Assembly (NCBI GenBank): GCA_023247035.1
Contig: JAHFHG010000002.1
Location: forward strand, 12,090-76,089
Origin: Candidatus Omnitrophota bacterium
GTDB taxonomy: Bacteria; Omnitrophota; Omnitrophia; Omnitrophales; Aquincolibacteriaceae
Length of the DNA: 64,000 nt
Direction: 5' to 3'
Part shown: positions 5,491-49,134 of the stretch, in pieces
How the letters are laid out: every line of letters starts with the position of its first letter
Numbering within the stretch: the stretch's first letter is position 1
Made by a program: the position numbers and the translations under genes
The notes under the pieces: model-generated
Told to the model about the DNA's origin: nothing
The model's input: the letters and a program-made list of their open reading frames with translations, nothing else
Database searches by the model: none

Positions 5491-7601
5491 CGGAGTTACT
5501 GAGCCGGACGGGAATTTGCGTGGATGTTGCCGTGCCTCTTCCGGTCGAGGGATTATTTTCATATCTCGCCCCGGTCCAGGAGGAGGGAAAAAAAATCCAG
5601 GCCGGCGTCCGCGTGCGTATTCCGTTCCGCAACCGCGAAATGATCGGCTATTTAGTCGGCCAGCGTCCGGCGCGGGAAGGGGAGAATCTCAAATCCGTGA
5701 TCCAAATCTTGGATGAAGCCCCTGTTCTTTCCCCGGTGATGCTTGAGCTGACCCGGTGGATCAGCAGTTATTACGGTTCAAGCTGGGGAGAGGCGATCGA
5801 GAACGCGCTTCCGCGCTGGGTAAAATATGGAAAAAAGGCGCTCGATCATTTGGAACGGCGCAAGGAGGAAGAAACCGGCGCAGGCCCGGCCCTTGGCGCT
5901 CCGGAGCCGGAGAACCGAAAACTTTCGGCCGCCCAGACCCGGGCTTTAGACGTTATCAAAAACGCTTTAAATACTCCTCACCCCAAACCGGTTTTGATCT
6001 ACGGAGTGACCGGGAGCGGGAAAAGTGAAATTTATATCCGGGCCATTCAAGAGGTGTTGAAAAGAAACCAATCCGCGATTTGCCTTGTGCCCGAGATCGC
6101 GCTCACCGAGCAGATCCGGCGTTTTTTCCTTCACCATTTCGGCGGCGAGCTGGAAATTCTGCACAGTAAATTGAGCGACGGGGAGAGGTTCCTTGCCTGG
6201 AAACGGCTTGAACAAGGAACCCGGAAGGTCGTCCTGGGTCCGCGCTCCGCCGTTTTTGCTCCTGTCCCGAACCTGGGCCTTATTATTATGGACGAGGAGC
6301 ATGAAGGGACTTATAAGCAGGAAACCTCACCCCGTTATCACGCCCGTGAAGTTGCGGCCTGGCGCGCCCGCCGCGAAAACGCGCTCTTGATGATGGGAAC
6401 CGCGACTCCCTCGCTGGAATCCATGTTCCGCGCGGAGCACGGTGAAATCGATTGTGTCCGCCTGGAGTCGCGGATTGATGAAAAACAAATGCCGCAGGTC
6501 CAGCTTTTGGATTTGAAGGATGAGATCAATCAGCGCAAAAAAGCCGCGATTTTGACGCCTCGCCTTATTGCCGAACTCGAGTTGAATCTGCGAAAAAAAG
6601 AAGGGACGCTCTTGCTGTTGAACCGCCGCGGATTTTCGACTCATATCAATTGCCCCCGATGCGGGTCGGTTGAGACGTGCAGCTCCTGCCACGTTTCACT
6701 GACTTTTCATCAGGAAGAAGAATCCCTTTTGTGCCATTACTGCAATTATCAGAAGCCCGTTTCGCGGGAGTGCTCCCAATGCCGAACCCCGGTCCTGCGT
6801 TTTGGAGGATTCGGCACGGAAAAAGTGGAAAGCGAGGTCGCCAGACATTTCCCCGCCGCGCGCATCGCCCGGATGGACGCCGACAGCGTGCGCAGGAAAG
6901 GCTCGCACGAAGAAATCCTCAAGGATTTCAGAGACCGTAAATACGACATCCTGATCGGGACGCAAATGATCGCCAAGGGTTTTGATTTTCCCCACGTCAC
7001 GCTGGTCGGAGTGATCCTGGCCGATGTCGGGCTCATGCTGCCGGATTTCCGGTCCGCGGAAAGGACTTTCCAGTTGCTGACCCAAGTCGCAGGCCGAGCG
7101 GGAAGGGGAGCGGCGCCGGGCCGGGTTTTTATTCAAACTTTTTCTCCGAGCCATCCGAGCATCCGGTTCGCCAAAGACCACGACTATATGAGTTTTTATA
7201 AACAGGAAAGCCGGGAGCGTTTTCAATACCGCTATCCGCCGGTTTGCCGCTTAATCAATATCATTGTCCGGTCGAAATCCGAAAATCCGGCCTACCTCCA
7301 CGCCCGCGCGATCCGCGATTCCCTGAAGCAGGCGCTTACGTTAAATCCTTCTGAGGAGGCCGCGGCGAACGGATCTTCCAATTCTTTTTCACCGCCCGAT
7401 CCTTTGCAATCCCTTGAGATTATCGGCCCTGCGCCGCTTCCTTTTTACAAACTCCGCGGGCATTACCGCTGGCATATTATGATTAAAATTCCCCGTCTTT
7501 CGGCGGAACTTCCGGCAGCCGTCAAGGCCGTTGTTTCCAAACTAAAAAAGCCTTCGAATGTCGCTTATGCCCTCGATATCGACCCGCTGAATATTCTCTA
7601 A
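5487..7601 (+). CDS. priA: Primosomal protein N' (PriA replication-restart helicase)
   Basis: Walker A GVTGSGKSE, a DEEHE box, a Cys4 zinc finger (CPRCGSVETCSSCH...CHYCNY) and a C-terminal helicase domain. GTG start at 5487 overlaps the UDG stop (GTGA). Confidence 0.85.
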   Translation: MTELLSRTGICVDVAVPLPVEGLFSYLAPVQEEGKKIQAGVRVRIPFRNREMIGYLVGQRPAREGENLKSVIQILDEAPVLSPVMLELTRWISSYYGSSWGEAIENALPRWVKYGKKALDHLERRKEEETGAGPALGAPEPENRKLSAAQTRALDVIKNALNTPHPKPVLIYGVTGSGKSEIYIRAIQEVLKRNQSAICLVPEIALTEQIRRFFLHHFGGELEILHSKLSDGERFLAWKRLEQGTRKVVLGPRSAVFAPVPNLGLIIMDEEHEGTYKQETSPRYHAREVAAWRARRENALLMMGTATPSLESMFRAEHGEIDCVRLESRIDEKQMPQVQLLDLKDEINQRKKAAILTPRLIAELELNLRKKEGTLLLLNRRGFSTHINCPRCGSVETCSSCHVSLTFHQEEESLLCHYCNYQKPVSRECSQCRTPVLRFGGFGTEKVESEVARHFPAARIARMDADSVRRKGSHEEILKDFRDRKYDILIGTQMIAKGFDFPHVTLVGVILADVGLMLPDFRSAERTFQLLTQVAGRAGRGAAPGRVFIQTFSPSHPSIRFAKDHDYMSFYKQESRERFQYRYPPVCRLINIIVRSKSENPAYLHARAIRDSLKQALTLNPSEEAAANGSSNSFSPPDPLQSLEIIGPAPLPFYKLRGHYRWHIMIKIPRLSAELPAAVKAVVSKLKKPSNVAYALDIDPLNIL

Positions 7602-7668
7602 AAGCGCGATTTACAAGCGCGATTGAATTTGCGCGAACCTATAGGGGGGTGATACAATCCCGTCATTT

Positions 7669-11137: not shown

Positions 11138-11290
11138 CTTGAGTTCCGCGAATTTCCAAATTCATAGAGTATCGCTTTTTGTGAGACAAGCGGTTGTCAT
11201 GTCCGCGTCCGCCGATAATCGGCGGGAAAGCGGCCCCGATAAAAACATTCAAGAATGACGGAAAGAAAAGCAAAATCCGCGGAACTCAAG
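11138..11290. repeat. MITE-like palindromic repeat, copy 1 (terminal inverted repeats TTGAGTTCCGCGAATTT / AAATCCGCGGAACTCAA), carrying a roughly 35 nt internal insertion relative to copy 2
   Basis: Near-identical to 18620-18733. The perfect TIRs were read directly in the sequence. Confidence 0.6.
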
Positions 11291-11615
11291 TTCAGAATTA
11301 GGCCATTAGGCCAAGCTCTCTTGGCTGAGGGTTTTGATTTTGGAGGCCTTAACTCCTTGATCCCGCGCGCGTTTGGCTTATTTATTTTTTTTAAGAAGAC
11401 TTCTTCTCGAAATTTTTAATCTTCGCAAGGTTGCTAATTTTTACAATCCTGTTACGGTTTAAGTTAGGGCATGAAATGGAAAAACTTTTCGGGAACCCGG
11501 AGATCCCAAAAATAGGCCGGGCAGCCCAAGATTTCATCGCCAAGCCTTTTGACTCTGGAGCGGCATAAGTAAAAATTTACCGCCAAAATTAGAGATCAAA
11601 GAGGAGAGGAGAATT

Positions 11616-12638: not shown

Positions 12639-14241
12639 AAAGCAGGGAAGAATCTTGATCGCTGAGGATGAGCCCGGAATGCAAGAATGGCTCAAGATGG
12701 AGCTTTCCCGCGCGGGGCATTCGGTGGAGGCCGTTTCCAACGGAATCGAGGCGGCCGAGCGCATTGAACGCGGGAAATTTGACCTTGTGATCAGCGATTT
12801 AAAAATGCCCCAAATGGGGGGAGCGGCGCTCTTAGATCATGTGAAGAGGGTGGCCCCGCAGCTTGAAGTCATTCTCATGACCGGCTACGGCACGGTGGAA
12901 TCCGCCGTTCTTGCGATGAAAAAAGGGGCTTATGATTTTATCCTGAAGCCCTTTAGCATCGAGGAGATGATCCTGCTGGTTGAAAAAAGTCTTGAGAAGC
13001 GGGATCTCAAAACCCTCGTGGCGCTTTACGAATCAAGCCGGGCGATTTTTTCTACGATCCAGATGGACAGGCTCTTTGAGATTATTATGGACATGCTGCA
13101 GACTGTCCTGGGAGGGGACGAAGGATCCCTTATGCTGTTTAATGAAGAAAAGAAACTGGTCATTGCGGCAAGCCGCGGCCTTTCGGAGGAAATTGTGCGT
13201 CAAACCCACGTTCAAGTGGGCGAACGGATCGCCGGCCGGGTTGCGGAAAAAAAACAGGCCCTCCTGCTTGTAGACGGGCTTGAAAAATATCCCGACTTTC
13301 GTGATCTCCCAAGCAACGACCGGATCAAGTCCTCGATTATCTGCCCTCTGATTTGGCAGGGAGAATTGTCAGGCATCCTCAATATCAACCGGACCCGGAA
13401 AAGGGAAAATTTCACGGTCGCCGATTTGCAAAGCGCCTCTATTTTTGCGGCCCAGGTATCCTTGGCGATCCAGAATGCGAAACTTTATGAAGGCCTGCGG
13501 CAAGCTTATCAAAAATTAGAGGCCGCTCAAAATCAACTGGTTCAATCCGAAAAACTGGCGTCCATCGGCCGCCTTGTCGCCGGAGTGGCCCATGAGCTGA
13601 ATAACCCGCTGACTTCCGTGATCGGATATTCCCAGCTCGCCCTTGAGTCGGAAGATGATTTAACGGAAATCCGCCGGCGGCTTTCGATCATTTTTGAACA
13701 AGCGCAGCGGTGCAATAAAATCGTCAAAGAGTTGCTTTTATTCGCGCAGCGCCGGACGCCCGAATTTCAGCAAGTCGATCTCTGTCGGCTCATCGATGAA
13801 AGCCTTGAGGGGATTTCAATCGAACTCAACAAGCAGGCCGTCAAGGTTTCAAAGCATTATCCTTCCGCCGGAGTTCATCTCCAAGCCGATCCGCAGTTGA
13901 TCCAGCAGGTTTTTACGAATATCCTCGCCAACGCTTGCCAGGCTTTGGAAGCCGCAGGACACGAAAAGGAGATCGGGATTACGATTTCCAGCTCAAAGGA
14001 AAAAGTCCTGACCTCTTTTTCAGACAATGGCCCGGGCATCTCCCAAGAAGTTCTCCATAAAATTTTCGATCCCTTTTTTACAACCAAAGGCGTCGGTAAG
14101 GGGACGGGGCTTGGGCTGAGTCTTTCCTACGGAATCATCAAAGAACACGGAGGGACGATCACGGTCAAAAGTGAATGCGGCCGGGGGACGGCTTTTACCG
14201 TCGAGCTGCCTTTAGAGAAAATCAGAACGGTTATTCGGTGA
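12619..14241 (+). CDS. Hybrid signalling protein: N-terminal receiver (REC), GAF domain, HisKA and HATPase_c
   Basis: REC motifs ILIAEDEP ... DLVISDLKMPQMGG, a H-box HELNNPLTSV and G-boxes DNGPGIS / GTGLGLS. Start chosen at ATG 12619 inside the longer ORF. Confidence 0.8.
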   Translation: MPGLEPKKQGRILIAEDEPGMQEWLKMELSRAGHSVEAVSNGIEAAERIERGKFDLVISDLKMPQMGGAALLDHVKRVAPQLEVILMTGYGTVESAVLAMKKGAYDFILKPFSIEEMILLVEKSLEKRDLKTLVALYESSRAIFSTIQMDRLFEIIMDMLQTVLGGDEGSLMLFNEEKKLVIAASRGLSEEIVRQTHVQVGERIAGRVAEKKQALLLVDGLEKYPDFRDLPSNDRIKSSIICPLIWQGELSGILNINRTRKRENFTVADLQSASIFAAQVSLAIQNAKLYEGLRQAYQKLEAAQNQLVQSEKLASIGRLVAGVAHELNNPLTSVIGYSQLALESEDDLTEIRRRLSIIFEQAQRCNKIVKELLLFAQRRTPEFQQVDLCRLIDESLEGISIELNKQAVKVSKHYPSAGVHLQADPQLIQQVFTNILANACQALEAAGHEKEIGITISSSKEKVLTSFSDNGPGISQEVLHKIFDPFFTTKGVGKGTGLGLSLSYGIIKEHGGTITVKSECGRGTAFTVELPLEKIRTVIR

Positions 14242-14388
14242 AGCCTTTTACAAAGGGCCGGCTTCTTAAGCGTCATCGGCGCTGTGATTAAAAATAAAGA
14301 TTAAAAAGAAACCGTAGTCAATTCCTCCTTCGATGAATAAAATGTATTCTGTTTTAGTGCGTCGTTTCTTAAGTTCGAGTGGTTATTC

Positions 14389-14445
14389 GTCATTCCCGCG
14401 AAATCGGGAATCCATGGATCCCCGATTAAAGCATTCGGGGATGAC
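14389..14445. repeat. Double-hairpin palindromic unit (outer GTCAT/ATGAC clamp around hairpins ATTCCCG...CGGGAAT and ATCCCCG...CGGGGAT) in the leader of the dsbD-like gene
   Basis: Homologous copy at 30470-30536 and degenerate versions inside both MITE-like elements. Confidence 0.5.
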
Positions 14446-14592
14446 AAGTTGGCATGATCAATCGAATTTAGGAAACAGCGTATTACTGACGTTTCGGAAA
14501 TTAATGGACACACGTTTTCCCTCTGAGAAAGCGTATCCATTCGATTCTGAAAGTTCAGTAGCTTAAATTCGAAAAACTATTCAGGAAATGGA

Positions 14593-15783
14593 ATGCACGA
14601 GAATTCACTGACTCTCCTAGGGGCTTTTGTGGTCGGACTCGGCCTGAACCTGACTCCCTGCGTCTATCCGATGCTTTCGATCACGGTTTCGCTGTTTGCC
14701 CATCCAAAAGAGCCGCGCGCCGGCAGCGCCTTTGCGAATGCCCTGATTTACATTTTTGGAATGGCCACGATGTATAGCGGTTTGGGGCTGGCCGCGGCTT
14801 TTACGGGAGAAATCTTCGGCGCTTTTCTCCAAAACCGTCTTGTTCTTCTGGGAATTGCCTTTTTTCTTTTTTTTACGGCCCTCAGTATGCTGGGGGCCTA
14901 TACCTTCCGGCTGCCCGCCGCGCTTGTGAATAGATTTTCCGCTCAAAAGGGAACCGGCCTGCTCAATTTCTATCTTTCCGGGCTGCTTGTCGGGATCTTT
15001 GCCGCGCCCTGTATCGGCCCTCCGGTGATCGCTCTCTTGACTTTTGCGGGCACGAAAGGGGATCCGCTGCTTGCCTTTTGGATTTTTTTCATTATGTCCG
15101 CGGGGCTGGGATTGCCTTACCTTATTTTGGGAACTTTTTCCGGATTGCTCCAGAGGCTGCCGAAATCGGGAATGTGGCTGGTGTGGGTGGAGCGCCTATT
15201 TGGGGTCGTGCTGATGGGCCTGGCCGGATTTTATTTGATCATCGCAATCCACGCCGAGTATCTCCCTTGGCTTGTTCCCGCGATGCTGGTGTCCGGAGGC
15301 GTTTACCTTGGATTCGTGGAACGTTCGCCCCAATACCGGCCCGCTTTTGTGCGCTTCAAGCAGGCCGTCGGGATCGGCGCGATTGTGATCGGGCTTGCCC
15401 TTCCGTTTCTGGGATCGCGGACGAGCGTAGTCTGGGAAAAATATTCGCCTGATAAACTTGAGTCCGCCAGGAAAAGTAATCAGCCGGTCATCCTCGATTT
15501 TTATGCGGATTGGTGCATTCCTTGCCACGAGCTTGACCGGTATACTTATTCGAATCCGGACGTCATCAAAGCCTTGGCGGGTTTTACCAGGCTCAAAGTG
15601 GACTTGACCCGCCCGGACACTCCGGAAGCTGAAGCGATCATTGAAAAATTCAACGTCCTTGGCGTCCCCACGATTCTTTTCCTGGACCGCGAGGGCAGCG
15701 AGGTGAAAGATTCCAGGATCACGGGTTTCGTGCCGCCGGAGGAATTTCTCAAAATGCTGACGCTTGAATATGAAACGCATTGA
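14593..15783 (+). CDS. dsbD: Thiol:disulfide interchange protein DsbD-like (CcdA-type TM core fused to a C-terminal thioredoxin domain)
   Basis: Multi-pass TM domain with a conserved Cys pair, and a C-terminal WCIPCH thioredoxin CxxC motif. Confidence 0.7.
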   Translation: MHENSLTLLGAFVVGLGLNLTPCVYPMLSITVSLFAHPKEPRAGSAFANALIYIFGMATMYSGLGLAAAFTGEIFGAFLQNRLVLLGIAFFLFFTALSMLGAYTFRLPAALVNRFSAQKGTGLLNFYLSGLLVGIFAAPCIGPPVIALLTFAGTKGDPLLAFWIFFIMSAGLGLPYLILGTFSGLLQRLPKSGMWLVWVERLFGVVLMGLAGFYLIIAIHAEYLPWLVPAMLVSGGVYLGFVERSPQYRPAFVRFKQAVGIGAIVIGLALPFLGSRTSVVWEKYSPDKLESARKSNQPVILDFYADWCIPCHELDRYTYSNPDVIKALAGFTRLKVDLTRPDTPEAEAIIEKFNVLGVPTILFLDREGSEVKDSRITGFVPPEEFLKMLTLEYETH

Positions 15784-18619: not shown

Positions 18620-18733
18620 GTTGAGTTCTGCGAATTTCCGAATTCATGGAGTATCGCTCTTTGTAAGACAAGCGCTGTCATTCCCGATAAAAACATTCAT
18701 GACGGAAAGAAAAACAAAATTTGCGGAACTCAA
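18620..18733. repeat. MITE-like palindromic repeat, copy 2
   Basis: Aligns almost base-for-base with 11138-11290 and has terminal inverted repeats. Confidence 0.6.
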
Positions 18734-18942
18734 ATTAGATCCTACTGGGAATACAATGAATACTACAAGATGACAATGAATTGAAAAAGAGAATTGCTCC
18801 AATTCAAAGTGCAAATTAAAATAAATCCGCAAGCGCCAACTCACGCTGTTCGGCGGGGAAGGGTAAAGCGGGATACCGGCATCGAACCCGTGTTTCCGTC
18901 TTGGGAACCCAAAAGTAGAACAGTGGAGGGCACAAAAGGAAA

Positions 18943-19173
18943 ATGAATCTCCTCACAATTTTTGGTTTGTTCGCAGTAACGGCGATGCTGGTGTGTTACG
19001 CGCTTGAGCAGAGAAGCCGGTGGTTCATTCTGGCCTTTGCAGGCGCGTGTGCCCTCGGATCGGTCTACGGATTTTTACAGGCGGCATGGCCTTTCGGCCT
19101 GGTTGAGGCAGTCTGGTCCGTAGTGGCTGTGCGGCGGTGGTCGCTGGCAGTGAAATCGACAAGCGCTGTATGA
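18943..19173 (+). CDS. Small membrane hypothetical protein (2 predicted TM helices)
   Basis: Hydrophobic 76-aa ORF whose stop overlaps the next start (ATGA). Confidence 0.35.
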   Translation: MNLLTIFGLFAVTAMLVCYALEQRSRWFILAFAGACALGSVYGFLQAAWPFGLVEAVWSVVAVRRWSLAVKSTSAV

Positions 19174-19511
19174 AAATCATAAAAGAAAAACTCAGCCTTG
19201 ATGAATTGAAACAGATGGCGGCCGCGATGTTCGGGGACATGGTGAAGGCTGTTGTCGACGCGGACCGTGAATGGATCGCCATTGATGCGGAACTTCATTC
19301 CGATCTTGAGGCTCTGCTTTTGGAAAGCGGATCTCAACAAAGCAGTCTCTGGGGAATCAACCTTTATCCCGGCGCGCAGGAGCAAGATTTTTTGGAATTC
19401 GATTCCATGATCAACATGCGTCCTTCCGGCGGCAATCAAAGCCGGGGCGTCGAAAGTGAAGCCGTGCGAAAAAAAATCCGCGCCGTCGTTTCAAAAAGAA
19501 TCCCGCGATGA
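19170..19511 (+). CDS. Hypothetical protein
   Basis: ORF translationally coupled (ATGA) to both of its neighbours. Confidence 0.4.
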   Translation: MKIIKEKLSLDELKQMAAAMFGDMVKAVVDADREWIAIDAELHSDLEALLLESGSQQSSLWGINLYPGAQEQDFLEFDSMINMRPSGGNQSRGVESEAVRKKIRAVVSKRIPR

Positions 19512-19840
19512 ACTACCGGCATCAGAGCCTTGCGGCAGGCCGCTGGAATCAGATGATGTTTGTCGAGCAAATGGCGAATATCGGAAGTGAAGTGGAACGC
19601 GCCCTCAATGGGCGGGCAAAAAAGAATGAAGGGTCCTCACAAAAAGCGTTTGAGCGGGCTTTGGAGTTAATGGATTTGACGCTGGGAAGCGCTTCAGGCT
19701 TTGCGCGGCTTAAAGAACTTGCCCGCGTCCGGGAAGCCCTGGTCGATTATTTTTTCGGAACCAATCAGTTTCGGTCCACAGAAGAATCGTGGAGGAAGTA
19801 TTTCCTGCATTTTAACTTTGCCGCGCGCAGGAATCGTTGA
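19508..19840 (+). CDS. Hypothetical protein, possibly a small MazG-like all-alpha NTP pyrophosphohydrolase (weak)
   Basis: Acidic helical pattern EVERAL...ERALELMDL. Only weak resemblance. Confidence 0.35.
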   Translation: MNYRHQSLAAGRWNQMMFVEQMANIGSEVERALNGRAKKNEGSSQKAFERALELMDLTLGSASGFARLKELARVREALVDYFFGTNQFRSTEESWRKYFLHFNFAARRNR

Positions 19841-19844
19841 GTCC

Positions 19845-20156
19845 GTGAAGCGGACAGGCTCATTCCACGTCTACATCGTTCAATGCTCGAATGGAAGTTA
19901 TTACACCGGAAGCACGAGCAATTTAAAAAAAAGGATTGAGCGGCACCGCCAAGGCCGCGGAGCAAAATATCTGCGCGGCAAAGCGCCGATCCGGCTCGTG
20001 TACGCCAAAGAATACCGATATTATAAAAATGTGCTGCGGGCGGAAAGGGATTTGAAGAAATTGAAACGAAAACAGAAACAGGCGCTGATTTTGAATGATG
20101 CTCAAACCCGCAAACTCATGGAAAGAGCCCTTCCTCCCTGCAGTTCTCGGGTTTGA
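19845..20156 (+). CDS. GIY-YIG domain protein (YhbQ/UPF0213-like)
   Basis: FHVYIVQCSNGSYYTGSTSNLKKRIERH...YLRG matches the GIY-YIG core. GTG at 19845 chosen. Confidence 0.7.
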   Translation: MKRTGSFHVYIVQCSNGSYYTGSTSNLKKRIERHRQGRGAKYLRGKAPIRLVYAKEYRYYKNVLRAERDLKKLKRKQKQALILNDAQTRKLMERALPPCSSRV

Positions 20157-29850: not shown

Positions 29851-30020
29851 GGCGGAGCCGGCTTCCGCAACGGATCTTTTGCCTTCGCCGGATTTTCAAT
29901 TCTTTCTAACATTCAGGATCATTTTCAGTCTTCGGCTCAAAAGCGCATTCTGCGCATTTGATCTTACAAAACGAACCGCTATAATTAATGAAACACGGGC
30001 GGCAGGAAATCGAACCCTTC

Positions 30021-33000
30021 ATGAAAACCATCTCTTTATTCCAGAAACCCAGCGCGATTTTTTTAATCTTTTCTTTAAGCCTTTCCCAAAGTCCCTCGTA
30101 TGCCGCTGCCGCGCCGGCGCCTCCGCTGGCGGTTTCTGAGCGCTCCCGGGCGCTTCTTTTTCTTCCCGAAGAACTTGGCGAGATCGAAGAATCCTTTCAG
30201 GGATCGAACGGAAAAACCGTGATCTTCATTCAAGACGCCCACGATTCCCTCGAAGCGCAGGAAAATATCGCCAAGACTATTCAATACCTGGTGGACAAGT
30301 ACGGGGTGAAGACTGTTTTTGAAGAAGGCTATGAAGGTCCTGTTCCCACGGATGATTATTTCGGCTTCATCAAAGATCCGTCCGTCAAAGAGAAAGTTTC
30401 TTACTTTTTATTAGATAAACTCCGCCTCGGCGGCGCGGAATACGCACACATCAACCGCTTTCACAACTTGTCATTCCCGCACGCGTTAAGCGGGAATCCA
30501 AATTTTAGGTCCCCGATAGAAACATTCGGGGACGACAAAAAACGTGTCGATTTCAAACTGATTGGGGCAGACAATATAAAGTTACATCTTGAGAATATCG
30601 ATTGGTATCGCCAGAATGCCAAGCATAAAGAAGAAACTGGAAGAGATTTGACTATTCTGCAAAATGAAATCGACAAACTTGCCAACCGGTATTTTCCTAA
30701 GGAACTCAAAGAATGGATGAAGCTTAAGAAAAGGTTTGATGAGAAACAAATTGATCTTTTGGATTATTTAAAGCGGACAATACAAGTCCCTCATCGAGAA
30801 TCCATAGACCATAAACTTTACCCCAATCTTTCGCTTCTCCTTCAAGCAGAACACACTCAAGACAAAGAAGTCCTAGAGAAAGTGAAAACCATTGAAGCCA
30901 AGATTCTTTTCGAGGAAATCGATTCGTTGGAAAACGCCGCCGCCGGCCCATTCCTACAAAATGGAACAGACCGGAAAATCTTCCAATATTACAAAGGAAT
31001 AAATCTTCTCAAAAGACTCAACGAGATTGAGATTACGCCCGCTGAATATGAGGCGGTCAAAGCGCAGCTTCAACATCTCAGCACCCAGGAACTGGCCCAA
31101 TTTATTGTCCAGCAAACGAATAAATCCATCGTCCTTTCCAAACGATGGGAGGAAAATATTGAAAGCGCCATTCGGTTTTATCAAATCTCACGAGCCAGAG
31201 ATTCTGCGATTGCCGAGCGACTGAATGATTTTCTTAAAAATCATGATGAAAAAGTGGCTGTCCTTGTCTTTGGAGGATTTCATAAAGAGAGGATTACAGA
31301 ATTGTTGAGAAAGAAAGGACTCCCTTACTATATAGTTTCTCCTCGAATAATGAACGTCGACAATAAGCATAAGGAACTCTACGCGCATTTAATGACAAAG
31401 GGATATTCGCTTTTCCCCGTTGCGGCAAATGTTGCTAAGGCAGCGCGTTTAGCAGGAGAGATCGAGCTCGCGGAAATGGGCGGCCAGAACGCAAAGTCAG
31501 AACTCCGAGCGTACCATGCGGCAATCACTAACATTGTTTCTTCATTGGTCTCCAATCGACCCAATCAAACATCTCGAGAACTGCTCGATCGTTTGATTAA
31601 CGGACGATTGATACACGAAGTTCTAAAAGTATCCAAACAAGCAATGGGAAAACGCCGATCCGAACTAAGAAGTAAAGAATCGGATTTTGCTTTAAGAGAA
31701 AAACGCCGTGATTATCTCAAGCGGCTAATGAATCAAGAAAATAAGCAATGGACGTTGGATGAGTTAGCAAACGCTACAGGTCAATCAACAGGACAGATTG
31801 TTAAGGATTTGCGATATTTGAATCTTTTTAAGCCCTCAAATCACCTAAATTTAGATGCCGAACGCATAGACCGAAGAAGACAGTGGGGATTACCAGATTA
31901 TTCTGACCTCGATAAGCTTTTACCTCGCTTGGATGAAGAATTTGCATATCTTCATGGAGAGGCTCTTTTTAATTTTTTAGCTCAAAAAGGCCGCGAGAAT
32001 GACCCCGTAAGCATGGAAGCGGCTATTTACGGCTTCTATAAATTTGTTGGAGAAAAAACCCCCGGTAATATTTCAGAACGAGGGCGATTGCTTGGTGAAC
32101 GCATTTATCACTATCTGAGGTTAAGAGAAAGTATGCCTTCTGACGGCCTGCGTCGAAATCCAGATGTTGAGTTCGATATTGGTATGGCAGAAAAAAGGAA
32201 GCGGGAGTCACGGCTTCCAAAATTTGGAAATATAAAAACAAGGAGGCCGAAGAAGAAAGTTTCTTTTTCGGAAGCACAGCAAATTATGGAAGAAAAAAAT
32301 TTACATTTAGATCAATCAATCGCATTCGTTGCGTTGTCCACGGCAGAAAATGAAACTTTATTTCGAGCGCTTAAATCAAGCGAATTGGAAGAGTCCGAGC
32401 GAAGACAAATTTATGATTATTTGATTCAGAAGCATGTAGGGTTTGTCGGCTGGTGGATCAAACATAAGATGCCGCCTTGGTATTTTGAACATTTTAACTT
32501 CGAAGAACTTTTAGCTTTTGGCCAAATTGGCCTTATGAAAACGATTGAAAGATATGATTTCAAAATGGGGCGGCGCTTTACCAGTTATGCCGAATGGTGG
32601 ATTCGCCATTCTATCCAACGCTCCATAGAGAAAAAAACACATAAATCTTTAAATGTCAGGCGTGATGAGGATAGCCCGGAGTGGATTGATACTTTGTCGG
32701 ATTCAAAAGATCAATCGGAAGAAGAATTATGGCCGGAACTATTTTCCAGTCTTAGGCATCTCGATAGTCGGTCTCGCATTATGTTGAGCTTGCGTTACGG
32801 GATTGGATCAGTAAGAACATACAATCTTCGAGAAATTGGCTTAATGTTTGGTGTAACTCACGAGCGTGTTAGACAAATTACAGAAAGAGCAGTTGAAAAG
32901 TTAAAACGCTTGGTTGGAAAAGTAACGGTTGATGATTCTTCTCAAGACCATACCGATGTTTTTTTATTCGAGGCTATGGAGTTAGAGCCAGAGAATCCAC

Positions 33001-36000
33001 TTTTCAAGCCACTAAGCCATCTCGGAGTTAAAAAGCTTGACCGGATTCGAGAAGTTCTTTCAAAAGAAAATCGCTTCAACTCGGAAATGCTGATGAGGAT
33101 TTTTAGGTCACGCGGCCAGTATGTGATAGCTCCATCGAAATATTTATGGGGTCTGCCTGCGGGTTTGCTTGAAACCGGCGGTGACACTTCCCATCATTTT
33201 GGATCGTGGAATGAAGAAGGTGGAAGACATAACATAGATTTACAAAAACCCAAAAAGATTCATTTTTCCAACGCACTCACAACCACAACCGAAATCATAA
33301 AAAGGTATCCTTATGCTCGGTATCTACTGCCTCCTGAAGAACAACTATTGCTGGCCTCTCAGGCTCAAGGAGAAAGGAGCCGATTCTATGCTTTGGGTAA
33401 GACATTGCAGTGGATTGGACTTTCTCCGCAAGATTTTATTATTTGGCTTGTTGAAAATAAAAAATATTTAGATCAAGAAATCGTTGATTTTATCGCACAA
33501 TCACCACTTTCTAAACGTCCTCGATACGAGCTAACGGCATCCCGCACAGGTGAGCATCTTCATGGGTCTTTACCAAGACCACGTACTGACCGAAAGATTG
33601 CAACGAAATGGATTTCAACTGAAGAAACCAGCTACACGCTAATCACACCTGCTGAATTGGCGGACCGCTTCCCTTCTGCCGAACCCTTCTTGGATAAACT
33701 CGAACCTCAATTACTTCTTGAGGCGGATTCGTCCGAGCATGATGAAATTAAATACTATTCTTTTGTTGAAGATGGACATCATACAAAAATTCTAATAAGG
33801 ATCAATAAAAGAACCGGCGAAATCCAAAGTCCTCATGATGGCCCAATCGGTTTTAGAAAGGAAATTTTGGATTTTGTAAGAAAAGGTGAGTTTGGCAATA
33901 AGCAAAAGCCTCCTGTTACCGCGCCTTTTGAAATGCACGCCGGATCACGGCATTTTATTTATTTCGGAACGATGGGGAAAGGTTCCATTGGCTTGAGTAT
34001 GAAGGGAGTGAAACCTAACACGCGTGTATCAGGAAGCGCTGTTCATTTGGAGCATGCTCCTCTTGGAATGGGGCCGCAATGGCTTTTAAGACTCACTGTT
34101 CATTTGAAAAGACCAAGAGTTGTTTATGCGAGATTCAAACGCTCTGGAACCCGCTTAGGTTTATTTAAAAAATCCCCTCAAACTTATATCGGAGCTTTTG
34201 TCAAACTTGGGAAATGGAATCAGGAAAAAATCCAGCCATTCCCTGAAAATGAAATCGAAATTACCGCGAGTTCCAAAGGACGTTTGGAACTTGGAAGCAA
34301 TGGCGATGGAGAGCGGATTGTTATTCACTTACCACTTTTACCCAAAGATCATAAAGTTTTAATTCGAAAAGTCCGCAATCAAGAAGATGGACAACAGCTC
34401 TTGGTCGTTCATACCCGCAATCCTGCTTATCGATATAGAAAATTTTATTATCGATTCACGAATCGTGGCTATCACACCCGAAGATACCACGAGGAAGTAA
34501 AGGACATAAGTCCCACGGCTAGAAGGAAGCTTAGCTATGAAGAAATTGCAAAGGCACAAGAAGATTTGAGAAGCCGAGAAGGAGCAGAGGCAAACTTATG
34601 GCGCGATCCCGAAAAGATTGCTTATGAGCTTGACCTATTCGACGCTTATTATCTTGTTTCGGAAGTTCAAAGAATAAACGCTTCTTTAGTTGCTCAAGAC
34701 ACAGCTAATTTGCCGCCTCTCGAAATAGACACCTCAAAGATTGTTGAGCTGCCGACTCCGGCTTACGATCAAGTAGGAGACGTTTATCATGCTGTTCCAG
34801 AATCTTCTGAGCGACCGGAGAAATCCGAGAAACCAGTCAAACCTAAACCATTATCCCCTTTAAGACTTGCTCAAAAAAGATTGGAAGAAGCTGAAAAAAA
34901 AACATTAGCTGAACGTTTGAAGGTTGGCTTTCGAGATGTGGGAGAAAGCGGTCGGTTTTTAGATTTGGGCGCAGGAAAGGGTGATTTAACCGCTGAACTT
35001 GCTGGACAATTTCAAGGTGGGGTTGCAGTCGAAATAAATGAAGATCGAGTCGAGCAGCTACGGCAGAGAAAAATTCCAAATCTTAATATTTGGGACATGG
35101 ATTTTTTTGATTATATGGAGATGGCGATTAAAGGGAATCAGCTTTTTGATGCGATTCTCATTTCACATGCTCTTTTATTCATTAAATTTGATCGCCGGGA
35201 CGCTTTCTTAAAAGATGTTCTATCAAGACTTAAGCCGAATGGAAAATTAGCGATTATTTTAAATGGCAGTAAAATTGAAGAGAGAAACCAAGTTCAGTTG
35301 CGAGCAAAGCTCATGAGAAAGCATGAGGCGCTAGCAGGAGACAACCCATCAACCAATATTGAAAGCAAACTGCGACAAATCGGCTATGGGGTACAAACCG
35401 AAAGAGTCAGAATCATTCATGAGACTCCTTCCAGAGACGAAATGATTTCTATTGTAAAAGCAATATTGCCACGCGAAGACCGTTTTCGTCTGTCGAATAT
35501 CACTGGATTTGTCGATTCAGTCCTGAAATTACCTGGAGAAGAAAAGTACCGCCTCTATGTTGATCAAGATATTTTATGGATAACACATCCTCGTTCTGAG
35601 GTTAGAAAGCAAGAAAATGTATTTGCAATGGTGTCTGTCAACGATTGGCAAAACTTTAATCGAACTAATCAGAATACCGAGGCTACGGCCACCAAAGCCG
35701 TCGTTTTTATAGATGGTTCCGTCGATAGCAAAGATGCCAAGCAGCGGGCGGAAGAATTAGCGGTGCTGGCCGCAGGTAATCCGAACCGAACGATTGTGGT
35801 TTATAATGCGGACAAAGTTTTTAAAAATAAAGGCGGTGAAATGGCGGAACTTTTAAAGTCGTTTGGTCTCGCCAATGTCAAGTTCGCTGCGGGTGAGTTG
35901 TCCGAAGCCCTCAAGCCCTACCAATTCCGGGATCAAGTTGATTTGGTGCACTACTCGGCAAGCGAAGAGGAGGCTGTTTTTGTTCAAGCCTCCGTTGGGA

Positions 36001-36209
36001 AATGGCTGGCGCAAAAACTGACCCGATTTGTCGGAGGGCCCGGCGCCTTAGGATACGGAATAAAATATTTGCAGGCTGTGAAATTGGGCAAGCCTGTGGA
36101 AGGTATCACGCCCGAGAACGGCTACTACGCCGTTTCCCCAGGCGCTTCGGAGTGGATGCGAAGCCTTTATCGAGCTCGGTTCGCGACCGTTTTCGCTCAA
36201 GCGGCGTGA
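30021..36209 (+). CDS. Giant multidomain protein (about 2060 aa): signal-peptide-like N-terminus, TraB/GumN/TIKI-like domain, sigma-70 region 2 plus region 4 module, central unknown region, class I SAM-methyltransferase motif, unknown C-terminus
   Basis: Uninterrupted 6.2 kb frame in AT-rich DNA. Motifs IFIQDAHDS...VLVFGGFHKERITELLRKKGLPYYIV; GQIGLMKTIERYDFKMGRRFTSYAEWWIRHSIQRSI; LREIGLMFGVTHERVRQITERAVEKL; FLDLGAGKGDLT. Confidence 0.7.
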   Translation: MKTISLFQKPSAIFLIFSLSLSQSPSYAAAAPAPPLAVSERSRALLFLPEELGEIEESFQGSNGKTVIFIQDAHDSLEAQENIAKTIQYLVDKYGVKTVFEEGYEGPVPTDDYFGFIKDPSVKEKVSYFLLDKLRLGGAEYAHINRFHNLSFPHALSGNPNFRSPIETFGDDKKRVDFKLIGADNIKLHLENIDWYRQNAKHKEETGRDLTILQNEIDKLANRYFPKELKEWMKLKKRFDEKQIDLLDYLKRTIQVPHRESIDHKLYPNLSLLLQAEHTQDKEVLEKVKTIEAKILFEEIDSLENAAAGPFLQNGTDRKIFQYYKGINLLKRLNEIEITPAEYEAVKAQLQHLSTQELAQFIVQQTNKSIVLSKRWEENIESAIRFYQISRARDSAIAERLNDFLKNHDEKVAVLVFGGFHKERITELLRKKGLPYYIVSPRIMNVDNKHKELYAHLMTKGYSLFPVAANVAKAARLAGEIELAEMGGQNAKSELRAYHAAITNIVSSLVSNRPNQTSRELLDRLINGRLIHEVLKVSKQAMGKRRSELRSKESDFALREKRRDYLKRLMNQENKQWTLDELANATGQSTGQIVKDLRYLNLFKPSNHLNLDAERIDRRRQWGLPDYSDLDKLLPRLDEEFAYLHGEALFNFLAQKGRENDPVSMEAAIYGFYKFVGEKTPGNISERGRLLGERIYHYLRLRESMPSDGLRRNPDVEFDIGMAEKRKRESRLPKFGNIKTRRPKKKVSFSEAQQIMEEKNLHLDQSIAFVALSTAENETLFRALKSSELEESERRQIYDYLIQKHVGFVGWWIKHKMPPWYFEHFNFEELLAFGQIGLMKTIERYDFKMGRRFTSYAEWWIRHSIQRSIEKKTHKSLNVRRDEDSPEWIDTLSDSKDQSEEELWPELFSSLRHLDSRSRIMLSLRYGIGSVRTYNLREIGLMFGVTHERVRQITERAVEKLKRLVGKVTVDDSSQDHTDVFLFEAMELEPENPLFKPLSHLGVKKLDRIREVLSKENRFNSEMLMRIFRSRGQYVIAPSKYLWGLPAGLLETGGDTSHHFGSWNEEGGRHNIDLQKPKKIHFSNALTTTTEIIKRYPYARYLLPPEEQLLLASQAQGERSRFYALGKTLQWIGLSPQDFIIWLVENKKYLDQEIVDFIAQSPLSKRPRYELTASRTGEHLHGSLPRPRTDRKIATKWISTEETSYTLITPAELADRFPSAEPFLDKLEPQLLLEADSSEHDEIKYYSFVEDGHHTKILIRINKRTGEIQSPHDGPIGFRKEILDFVRKGEFGNKQKPPVTAPFEMHAGSRHFIYFGTMGKGSIGLSMKGVKPNTRVSGSAVHLEHAPLGMGPQWLLRLTVHLKRPRVVYARFKRSGTRLGLFKKSPQTYIGAFVKLGKWNQEKIQPFPENEIEITASSKGRLELGSNGDGERIVIHLPLLPKDHKVLIRKVRNQEDGQQLLVVHTRNPAYRYRKFYYRFTNRGYHTRRYHEEVKDISPTARRKLSYEEIAKAQEDLRSREGAEANLWRDPEKIAYELDLFDAYYLVSEVQRINASLVAQDTANLPPLEIDTSKIVELPTPAYDQVGDVYHAVPESSERPEKSEKPVKPKPLSPLRLAQKRLEEAEKKTLAERLKVGFRDVGESGRFLDLGAGKGDLTAELAGQFQGGVAVEINEDRVEQLRQRKIPNLNIWDMDFFDYMEMAIKGNQLFDAILISHALLFIKFDRRDAFLKDVLSRLKPNGKLAIILNGSKIEERNQVQLRAKLMRKHEALAGDNPSTNIESKLRQIGYGVQTERVRIIHETPSRDEMISIVKAILPREDRFRLSNITGFVDSVLKLPGEEKYRLYVDQDILWITHPRSEVRKQENVFAMVSVNDWQNFNRTNQNTEATATKAVVFIDGSVDSKDAKQRAEELAVLAAGNPNRTIVVYNADKVFKNKGGEMAELLKSFGLANVKFAAGELSEALKPYQFRDQVDLVHYSASEEEAVFVQASVGKWLAQKLTRFVGGPGALGYGIKYLQAVKLGKPVEGITPENGYYAVSPGASEWMRSLYRARFATVFAQAA
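30470..30536. repeat. Second copy of the double-hairpin unit, located inside the coding sequence of the giant ORF (read through in frame)
   Basis: TTGTCATTCCCGC...GCGGGAATCC...GTCCCCGATAGAAACATTCGGGGACGAC aligns with 14389-14445. Confidence 0.5.
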
Positions 36210-47967: not shown

Positions 47968-49134
47968 ATGAATAAAACTGGGGCGATAGGACTGAAAGTC
48001 ACTCGTTTTGATTATCAAAAATATGAGGAAAATTTTCTAGCTCCTTATGCGGTTAAGAGTTCTCAAAGCAGGGGGCGGAAACATAAGGAAAAAGAGCACG
48101 AATTCCGCACCGCTTTTCAGCGTGACCGGGACAGGATCATTCACTCGACCGCCTTCCGCCGCCTAGAATATAAGACGCAAGTTTTTGTCAATCATGAAGG
48201 GGATCATTACCGCACGCGCCTGACCCACACGCTCGAGACCTCCCAAATCGCCAGAACCATTGGCCGCGCCCTCCGGCTTAACGAAGATTTGGTGGAAGCG
48301 ATTGCGCTGGCTCATGATTTGGGCCACGGCCCGTTTGGCCACGCCGGGGAATGGGCTTTAAGCGAACTGATGAAAAATCACGGGGGCTTTGAACATAATG
48401 TTCAGACCTTGAGGATTGTAGAAGAATTGGAAGACAGCTACGTTGATTTCCCCGGACTCAACCTTACCTTTGAAACCTTAGAAGGGCTTAAGAAGCATCC
48501 CGAGCGTTTTTACCGGCGCCGCGCCCAGCGCTTCAGATCTCTTGAAGCGGATATCGTGGATCTTGCCGATGAAATTGCCTATTCCAATCACGACCTTGAC
48601 GACGGTCTCCGTTCCGAACTATTGAGTGAGGCGAGCCTGCGAGACCTTCATTTATGGCGGGAGGCGGAGAAATATATTGGGAATAAATACGCTTCGTTTT
48701 CGTCTAGGACCCAGAAGAAACGCCTGACGATCCGCTTGATGATCAACCGCTTGGCCACGGACGTGGTCGAGCATTCGGTCAAGCAGATCCGGCGGCTCGG
48801 AATCCGCTCTTTGGATGACCTTCAGAAGACCCGACCTCCCGTCATTTCATTATCGGACACAGGCCGGCGCAGTTTGGCGGAGCTTAAAAGATTTCTTTAC
48901 CAAAATCTTTATCAAAACTACCGCGTCATCCGGATGACCGATAAGGGACAGAGGTTTTTAAAGGCTCTTTTTCAGATTTATCTTCAGAAACCCGAGCAGC
49001 TTCCGCCGGATGCGCTGATGCGCCGCAAAAAAGAGGGGATTCACCGGGCCATTTGCGATTATCTGGCGGGAATGACAGACCGCTTTGCCCTGGATGAATA
49101 TAAACGTTTTTTTGAGCCTTATGAGCGTGTGTAG
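47968..49134 (+). CDS. dgt: dGTPase-like HD-domain triphosphohydrolase
   Basis: FQRDRDRIIHSTAFRRL...HTLETSQIAR...AHDLGHGPFGH. Confidence 0.85.
   Translation: MNKTGAIGLKVTRFDYQKYEENFLAPYAVKSSQSRGRKHKEKEHEFRTAFQRDRDRIIHSTAFRRLEYKTQVFVNHEGDHYRTRLTHTLETSQIARTIGRALRLNEDLVEAIALAHDLGHGPFGHAGEWALSELMKNHGGFEHNVQTLRIVEELEDSYVDFPGLNLTFETLEGLKKHPERFYRRRAQRFRSLEADIVDLADEIAYSNHDLDDGLRSELLSEASLRDLHLWREAEKYIGNKYASFSSRTQKKRLTIRLMINRLATDVVEHSVKQIRRLGIRSLDDLQKTRPPVISLSDTGRRSLAELKRFLYQNLYQNYRVIRMTDKGQRFLKALFQIYLQKPEQLPPDALMRRKKEGIHRAICDYLAGMTDRFALDEYKRFFEPYERV

Follow-up and report, generated by a model that had tools for sequence, protein, structure and literature searches.

NTS/SRM-type inverted hairpin doublets in an Omnitrophota genome resemble the ends of Ssn-like GIY-YIG nuclease cassettes

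The window, that is the whole stretch of 64,000 nucleotides from a Candidatus Omnitrophota bacterium analysed here, carries two full copies of a palindromic unit, U1 and U2 (Table 1). U1 is located between a gene for a hybrid histidine kinase (stop at 14241) and a DsbD-like gene (start at 14593). A weak promoter-like site at 14315-14343 precedes it, and the DsbD-like start codon follows 148 nt further on. U2 lies inside a giant ORF, the predicted product of which includes an N-terminal signal-like segment, a ChaN/Tiki-like haem-binding-type region, sigma-70 r2/r4 and a SAM methyltransferase domain. The U1 and U2 sequences quoted in the initial annotation were found at the coordinates given in Table 1, and DNA folding confirmed two internal hairpins in each.

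Table 1. Coordinates of the doublets, their parts and the associated features.
Feature	Coordinates	Strand	Description
MITE-like element 1	11139-11295		12-bp terminal inverted repeat TTGAGTTCCGCG
Decayed doublet	about 11197-11259	.	core of MITE-like element 1
Doublet U1	14389-14445 (57 nt)	.	intergenic
U1 left half	14389-14412		GTCATTCCCG-CGAAAT-CGGGAATC
U1 spacer	14413-14416		CATG, 4 nt
U1 right half	14417-14445		reverse strand reads GTCATCCCCGAATGCTTTAATCGGGGATC
MITE-like element 2	18621-18739		12-bp terminal inverted repeat, same kind as element 1
Doublet remnant	18677-18702	.	GTCATTCCCG/ATAAAAACATTC/ATGAC; same position in MITE-like element 2
Giant ORF	29988-36209	+	2073 aa; ~42% G+C vs ~51% around
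Doublet U2	30470-30536 (67 nt)	.	inside giant ORF 29988-36209
U2 left half	30470-30498
U2 spacer	30499-30507		9 nt
U2 right half	30508-30536		GGTCCCC...GGGGACGAC variant
Third full doublet, same genome	L123 17354-17424		about 7.4 kb past right window end

Each unit is an inverted pair of the half-site (T/C)GTCAT-YCCCG-loop-CGGGR-ATCC, with GTCAT at the outer ends and ATC/GAT in the centre. The half-site stems comprise 7-8 bp (ATTCCCG/CGGGAAT or ATCCCCG/CGGGGAT), followed by the loop and then by ATCC. As single-stranded DNA, U1 is predicted to form two hairpins (-13.3 kcal/mol, z = -2.7) and U2 two perfect 8-bp hairpins (-16.7 kcal/mol, z = -4.8), an equal fold of the latter being reached in 0/200 shuffles; a hairpin was predicted in 4/4 halves of the two units. 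In the variant right half of U2, an A-T pair of the stem has been replaced by G-C, which is a compensatory change. The outer GTCAT...GAC ends, initially described as a clamp, are shared by the two units as claimed; rather than as a separate stem, they are better described as flanking sequence, conserved and oriented, on the 5' side of each inverted half-site.

The half-site was compared with the Neisseria Transformation Sequence (NTS; CGTCATTCCCGCGMAVGCGGGAATCYRG, 28 nt), which contains the classical dRS3 sequence ATTCCCN8GGGAAT (Chenal et al. 2025, PMC11893778). NTS is bound by SsnA, a small GIY-YIG protein (cd10448) that cuts just upstream of it, in single-stranded DNA only and on one strand only, and the (C/T)GTCAT located 5' of the stem and the C after the stem are critical for both cutting and binding (PMC11893778). 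Genes homologous to that of SsnA are flanked in many bacteria by "Ssn-related motifs" (SRM), and Rickettsia is among the SRM-rich genera (PMC11893778). In the window, positions 14388-14415 (U1 left half) match the NTS consensus with 2/28 mismatches (0.00 expected), and positions 14392-14411 are an exact dRS3 ATTCCCN8GGGAAT (0.02 expected). The flanks corresponding to those critical in Neisseria, i.e. the GTCAT side and the C after the stem, are invariant in 62 doublets compared. Given that such matches are expected about zero times, a chance origin can be excluded.

The published SRM string HGTCWYN(0-2)YYVSBRHN(0-5)WNVSBRGN(0-2)RNCYNB gave 0 matches in the window. The left half of U2 fails at the last base only and that of U1 by a G-to-T change that shortens its stem by one pair, whereas the right halves have loops of 9-11 nt, which exceed the length permitted by the string. 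Thus, the string is too narrow to capture the window copies, which are relatives just outside the published search definition. Taken together, the window doublets appear to be NTS/SRM-type hairpin repeats of the kind tied to Ssn GIY-YIG nucleases, and not classical RAYT-associated REP sequences. A literature search for such repeats in Omnitrophota revealed nothing relevant.

Two further copies form the cores of the MITE-like elements. A scan of the window for TCCCCGATNRAARCATTC with up to 3 mismatches (<=3) returned exactly the four places named in the initial annotation, as compared with 1.3 expected, and four matches were reached in 3/100 shuffles. The copy at 11197-11259 retains the GTCAT and ATGAC ends, one hairpin and the right-half arm and loop CCCCGATAAAAACATTC. 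That at 18677-18702 is internally deleted and has lost its hairpin according to DNA folding, MITE-like element 2 having an internal deletion of ~34 nt. The right-hand arm and loop CCCGATAAAAACATTC are common to the full units and both of these copies. Hence, the degenerate forms reported inside both elements are real but decayed, as judged by the mismatch scan and folding. The arms of the two elements are ~90% identical, with the terminal inverted repeat TTGAGTTCCGCG...CGCGGAACTCAA, and represent a separate, window-specific repeat: they were found only at the two window sites, and none of the other loci compared (genome, ENA and Logan) contains them. Scans with 10-mers only were uninformative (9 matches versus 5.4 expected and 5 versus 8.7 expected in the window). 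A 10-mer match at 49067 was rejected as a further copy, as it lacks a hairpin and falls within an ordinary ORF.

By exact-protein look-ups, parts of the window were placed on contigs of the ENA metagenome ERZ27276474, at 99.9% identity. One of these contigs extended the window by 6.6 kb at its right end. With the third full doublet, located about 7.35 kb beyond that end, 3 full and 2 decayed copies were counted in about 70.5 kb of the same genome. All five share the + strand orientation, with a GTCATTCCCG-type half on the left and a half with an ATNRAARCATT loop on the right. Nearly all genes lie on this strand, and its GC skew is positive; with five copies (5/5), the agreement is suggestive only.

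The distribution of the doublets was studied in GTDB, with one genome per species, using the pattern GTCATYCCCGN{4,12}CGGGRATCCN{0,16}YCCCCGA, which fixes the whole of the left hairpin but, of the right hairpin, the first arm only. Matches were obtained in at least 120 stretches, which represent about 20 phyla. Among the matches listed, about 20 loci belong to Omnitrophota and others to several Patescibacteria lineages, to Bacteroidota, Alpha-, Beta-, Gamma- and Zetaproteobacteria, Desulfobacterota, Nitrospirota and Chloroflexota, and to Planctomycetota, Acidobacteriota, Gemmatimonadota, Elusimicrobiota, Cyanobacteria, Dependentiae and others; canonical full doublets occupy 61 places among them. 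U1 differs by 1 nucleotide from the doublet of Omnitrophica bacterium RIFCSPLOWO2_01_FULL_45_10b (locus L059).

The second arm of the right hairpin (TCGGGG), on which the search pattern has no bearing, was present within 3-12 nt in 54/113 of the matches listed, as compared with 0.28 expected, and the next outward pair in those 54 is T-A in 46, C-G in 7 and T-G in 1. RNAalifold analysis of 62 doublets predicted exactly two hairpins, with compensatory changes at 7/20 pairs; the conservation of the left hairpin is partly due to the search pattern that fixed it, the variable positions being unfixed. These data show that the hairpins are under constraint. The opposite outcome, i.e. that more copies would be lacking and the hairpin-forming bases would not be conserved, was thus not observed: the third full copy, the at least 120 further stretches and the compensatory changes all speak against it. 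In the alignment (A5) of the doublets, columns 2 and 77, which hold the bases outside GTCAT and GAC, covary, with T...A in 33 doublets and C...G in 13. This covariation indicates either that the inverted repeat is one base longer or that there is a lineage-specific flank preference. TGTCAT occurs in Omnitrophota and Patescibacteria, and CGTCAT in Proteobacteria.

In the genome loci, the half-sites are bordered by 218 ORFs, which are unrelated housekeeping genes. Together with the number, dispersal and palindromic nature of the copies, this bears out the initial assignment to a REP/BIME-type family or a small mobile palindrome. Among the 25 commonest neighbour families listed per search, no nuclease or transposase family other than GIY-YIG occurs two or more times. 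Of the full doublets, 15/62 are inside reading frames that stay open for 60 codons or more to each side, several of these in very long ORFs. No excess of identical flanking 2- to 5-mers that would point to a target-site duplication was detected in 62 doublets at three boundary offsets, which argues against a DDE-type MITE and fits a single-strand or nick-and-repair route. The flanks of the doublets show a preference for TT/.../AA (here and below, a slash marks the outer boundary of a repeat).

A structure that serves the host would be an alternative, namely a terminator, an attenuator, an mRNA stabiliser or a protein-binding site. The position of U1 between a promoter-like site and the DsbD-like start codon would suit such a role, and REP-type elements stabilise transcripts. 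However, no T-run and no terminator-like site were found in the region 14150-14650 around U1, and no Rfam family reached the gathering score in the whole window. Furthermore, the doublets also occur in coding sequence, in both orientations and beside unrelated genes in about 20 phyla, which fits a selfish repeat and not a gene-specific regulator. Thus, it is unlikely that host regulation accounts for the doublets.

Among the at least 120 listed doublet loci, five include Ssn-like genes (L005, L024, L025, L098 and L056, the last being frameshifted), and in the four of these that were examined (L005, L024, L098 and L056) hairpins directly adjoin the gene. Three small GIY-YIG proteins from doublet loci were used to build an Ssn-like profile. 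The Ssn-like proteins consist of 92-98 aa and a single domain, assigned to PF01541 in database copies. The Omnitrophota protein is 53% identical to that of Dyella, the gene for which is flanked by hairpins of the exact NTS consensus; it is 78% identical to a Patescibacteria protein and 70% identical to a deltaproteobacterial one. The family is very large and conserved, 7978/8000 scored candidates having E <= 1e-10. NCBIfam includes no model specific to Ssn-like proteins, and a sequence search of the PDB with an Ssn-like protein gave only weak matches to UPF0213, SLX1 and UvrC. From their size, domain content and flanking hairpins, the bracketed GIY-YIG genes would be members of cd10448. Many Ssn-like genes in the databases are on very short contigs. 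At L005, an Omnitrophota locus (nzgw330), four doublets or half-doublets at 6687-7626 surround an intact Ssn-like gene at 7257-7520 on the - strand; three near-identical tandem copies in this cluster are ~110-120 nt apart, which is a BIME-like arrangement.

When 80 metagenome loci were chosen solely for the presence of an Ssn-like gene, half-sites were found in 78/80. In 49/80, the half-site closest to the gene is on the + strand on its upstream side and on the - strand on its downstream side, so that GTCAT faces outward, at median distances of 25 and 24 nt. The consensus of this cassette is T/GTCAT...ATC-CAG...gene...CTG-GAT...ATGAC/A and that of the doublets T/GTCAT...ATC-CAG..CTG-GAT...ATGAC/A. 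The inner distances of outward-facing half-site pairs are bimodal, at 0-24 nt and 300-349 nt. Close pairs (<50 nt) near Ssn-like genes include 19 outward, 11 inward and 14 tandem pairs; hence, the polarity of the doublets is more frequent than the 25% expected, yet it is not exclusive, and BIME-like clusters exist. Since the polarity and junctions of the doublets match those of the hairpins that bracket Ssn-like genes, the doublet is probably made up of the two ends of a hairpin-ssn-hairpin cassette from which the gene has been lost, and would be a REPIN- or MITE-like, non-autonomous element whose spread, present or past, would rely on an Ssn nuclease provided in trans.

No Ssn-like (cd10448-type) gene was found in the ~70 kb seen, comprising the window and its extension. 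The sole GIY-YIG gene seen there, at 19845-20156 on the + strand, was considered as encoding the cognate enzyme and was rejected: it is of the UPF0213/YhbQ type (match to PDB 1zg2 with E = 3e-17), its product is 36% identical to Ssn-like proteins, and it has no flanking hairpins. It is located 1.1 kb downstream of MITE-like element 2 and is preceded on the same strand by a DUF5674 ORF at 19137-19511 and then by an ORF for 110 aa at 19508-19840 that has no Pfam match.

Two other explanations invoke an enzyme of a different kind. The doublets may chiefly be targets of a recombinase, at which IS110/Piv-type transposases or filamentous phages attach or insert. dRS3 has been cited as the target of a phage recombinase (PMC11893778), and the left half of U1 is a perfect dRS3. 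However, no IS110-type or integrase family is prominent among the neighbour families listed, and only 3 pattern matches were found in 2.9 million viral contigs, which indicates that the doublet is not a phage feature. Besides, the bracketing of GIY-YIG genes by the hairpins would be left unexplained. A recombinase target is therefore a distinctly improbable account of the doublets, albeit one that is not exclusive of their derivation from a cassette.

The second, a classical REP/REPIN system in which REP doublets are mobilised by a RAYT (an HUH Y1 transposase), as in Pseudomonas or E. coli, is very improbable. The architecture is indeed alike: inverted palindromes with a short spacer, the absence of a target-site duplication, intergenic dispersal near housekeeping genes and a gene-bearing parent flanked by the same repeats in inverted orientation. 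In contrast to the GTAG/GTGG head (GT[AG]G) of RAYT-bound REPs, the head is GTCAT in 62/62 doublets. No Y1 transposase family is present among the 25 commonest families listed per search for the 218 neighbour ORFs, and the gene actually bracketed by the hairpins encodes a small GIY-YIG nuclease. As a GIY-YIG hydrolase takes the place of the HUH tyrosine transposase, there is no known strand-transfer step.

The giant ORF that contains U2 belongs to a family whose named homologues among the matches are all from Omnitrophota, most database copies being truncated at contig ends. Translated in the frame of the ORF, U2 gives SFPHALSGNPNFRSPIETFGDD. When aligned with 22 homologues, the window protein shows a net insert of ~28 residues directly after a near-invariant AEYAHINR; 18/22 homologues have no insert at this site, and 4/22 have other, unrelated insertions. 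The initial annotation had proposed that one copy landed in frame within the giant ORF, and the comparison with these 18 homologues upholds this, U2 being a true insertion. The L043 homologue, which is 41% identical, has a doublet at U2's own site. A second site, at about residues 365-390 in the numbering of the window protein, is occupied by in-frame doublets in the L081, L015, L008 and L092 homologues. The frame in which they are read varies (VIPEIF..., LSFPHVF..., VIPAKAG...), and one is read from the other strand (SSPNVFIGDPLDSRLRGND). The second-site doublets are independent events. The family has two insertion hot spots, after AEYAHINR and at about residue 365-390.

That the U2 segment is instead a protein motif, SFP..SGNP...SPI.TFGDD, selected at the protein level is hardly credible: it is in frame and L043 keeps a copy at the same site despite an overall identity of 41%, but the same DNA is intergenic elsewhere, is read in other frames or from the other strand in homologues (VIPEIFNRES..., SSPNVFIGDPLDSRLRGND), is missing from 18/22 homologues, and keeps its stem complementarity at the DNA level, including the compensatory A-T to G-C change.

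Derivation from an ssn cassette, the preferred explanation, implies the following route of spread. The two halves of a doublet face each other with GTCAT outward, and each strand therefore has one forward half, which would be cleavable, at its own 5' end of the element. At a single-stranded stage (replication, repair or uptake), each half would fold, and an Ssn nuclease would bind it and nick the DNA just 5' of GTCAT, which in a doublet would give one nick at each outer boundary, on opposite strands. Copies may then spread or be lost via repair or recombination at the nicks, and no target-site duplication would be left. GIY-YIG nucleases hydrolyse DNA, and none is known to rejoin it; as hydrolases, they leave the chemistry of transposition (strand transfer) missing from the cassette model. 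An Ssn nuclease of this organism would bind or cut the window copies and would move them.

The window copies themselves look like passengers: U1 is located in a 5' intergenic region, U2 is tolerated in a giant protein, and two copies are decaying in MITE-like elements. U2 would add a tolerated surface loop to the giant protein, which is predicted to be secreted.

A wider proposal is conceivable, though in our judgement somewhat short of probable, namely that these elements constitute a distinct class of mobile elements. The autonomous form would be a cassette of ~400 bp with one gene for a GIY-YIG nuclease acting on single-stranded DNA and two outward hairpins, and the doublets would be its non-autonomous forms. 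Such elements would move via single-stranded DNA without target-site duplication and cross phyla freely, as is suggested by the 78% identity between the Omnitrophota and Patescibacteria Ssn-like proteins, and would repeatedly colonise the genes for giant secreted proteins of Omnitrophota in frame, adding loops of ~20 to 25 residues at hot spots. If true, the RAYT/REPIN system would have a counterpart based on GIY-YIG.

Rickettsia palindromic elements (RPE), which are about 100-150 bp in size and have been described in one genus, are palindromes located in frame in protein-coding genes, where they add tolerated short peptides. The doublets resemble RPE in habit, as they also occur in frame in coding genes and are absent from homologues, and they are shorter. 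With DDE-derived MITEs, such as Correia elements, they share a short, non-coding structure with terminal inverted repeats and a high copy number, but they have no target-site duplication, and the parent encodes no DDE transposase. The elements at 11139-11295 and 18621-18739 do resemble DDE-derived MITEs.

The closest known system is that of NTS/dRS3 and SsnA of Neisseria (PMC11893778). The (C/T)GTCAT flank, the ATTCCCG...CGGGAAT stem, the ATCC and the dispersal in many copies are the same, and so is the bracketing of small single-domain GIY-YIG genes by hairpins, which was seen here in other genomes. The doublets differ in being tight inverted pairs with spacers of 4-15 nt, in that one half often has a loop of 9-11 nt as compared with the published SRM, and in their location: about a quarter of them lie in long ORFs, whereas only 2% of NTS are within genes in N. 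meningitidis (PMC11893778). The family is therefore a known one (2025), in an arrangement, a host phylum and a coding-sequence habit that are absent from the text of PMC11893778.

The first description of this family of hairpins and of the nuclease that recognises them dates from 2025 and concerns mainly Neisseria. The match of the doublet polarity and junctions to the ends of nuclease cassettes affords a concrete, testable, REPIN-like model of spread, and the absence of a target-site duplication narrows the possible mechanisms. Unlike Neisseria, Omnitrophota tolerate doublets in frame in giant genes at recurrent sites. Gene calling and alignments of protein families in candidate phyla would be affected, as peptides such as SFP..SGNP, VIPAKAGI and PIKTFGDD may be spurious or inserted.

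Recognition of the doublets is also of value for annotation in that it explains assembly breaks. The ENA contig ends 44 nt after the third doublet, which suggests that assemblies break at such repeats. Two assemblies of the source organism are 99.92% identical over 13 kb, and the sole indel between them is a 1-nt deletion inside U1 (window 14389-14445 versus L001 9798-9853, GGGAATCC against GGGAACC).
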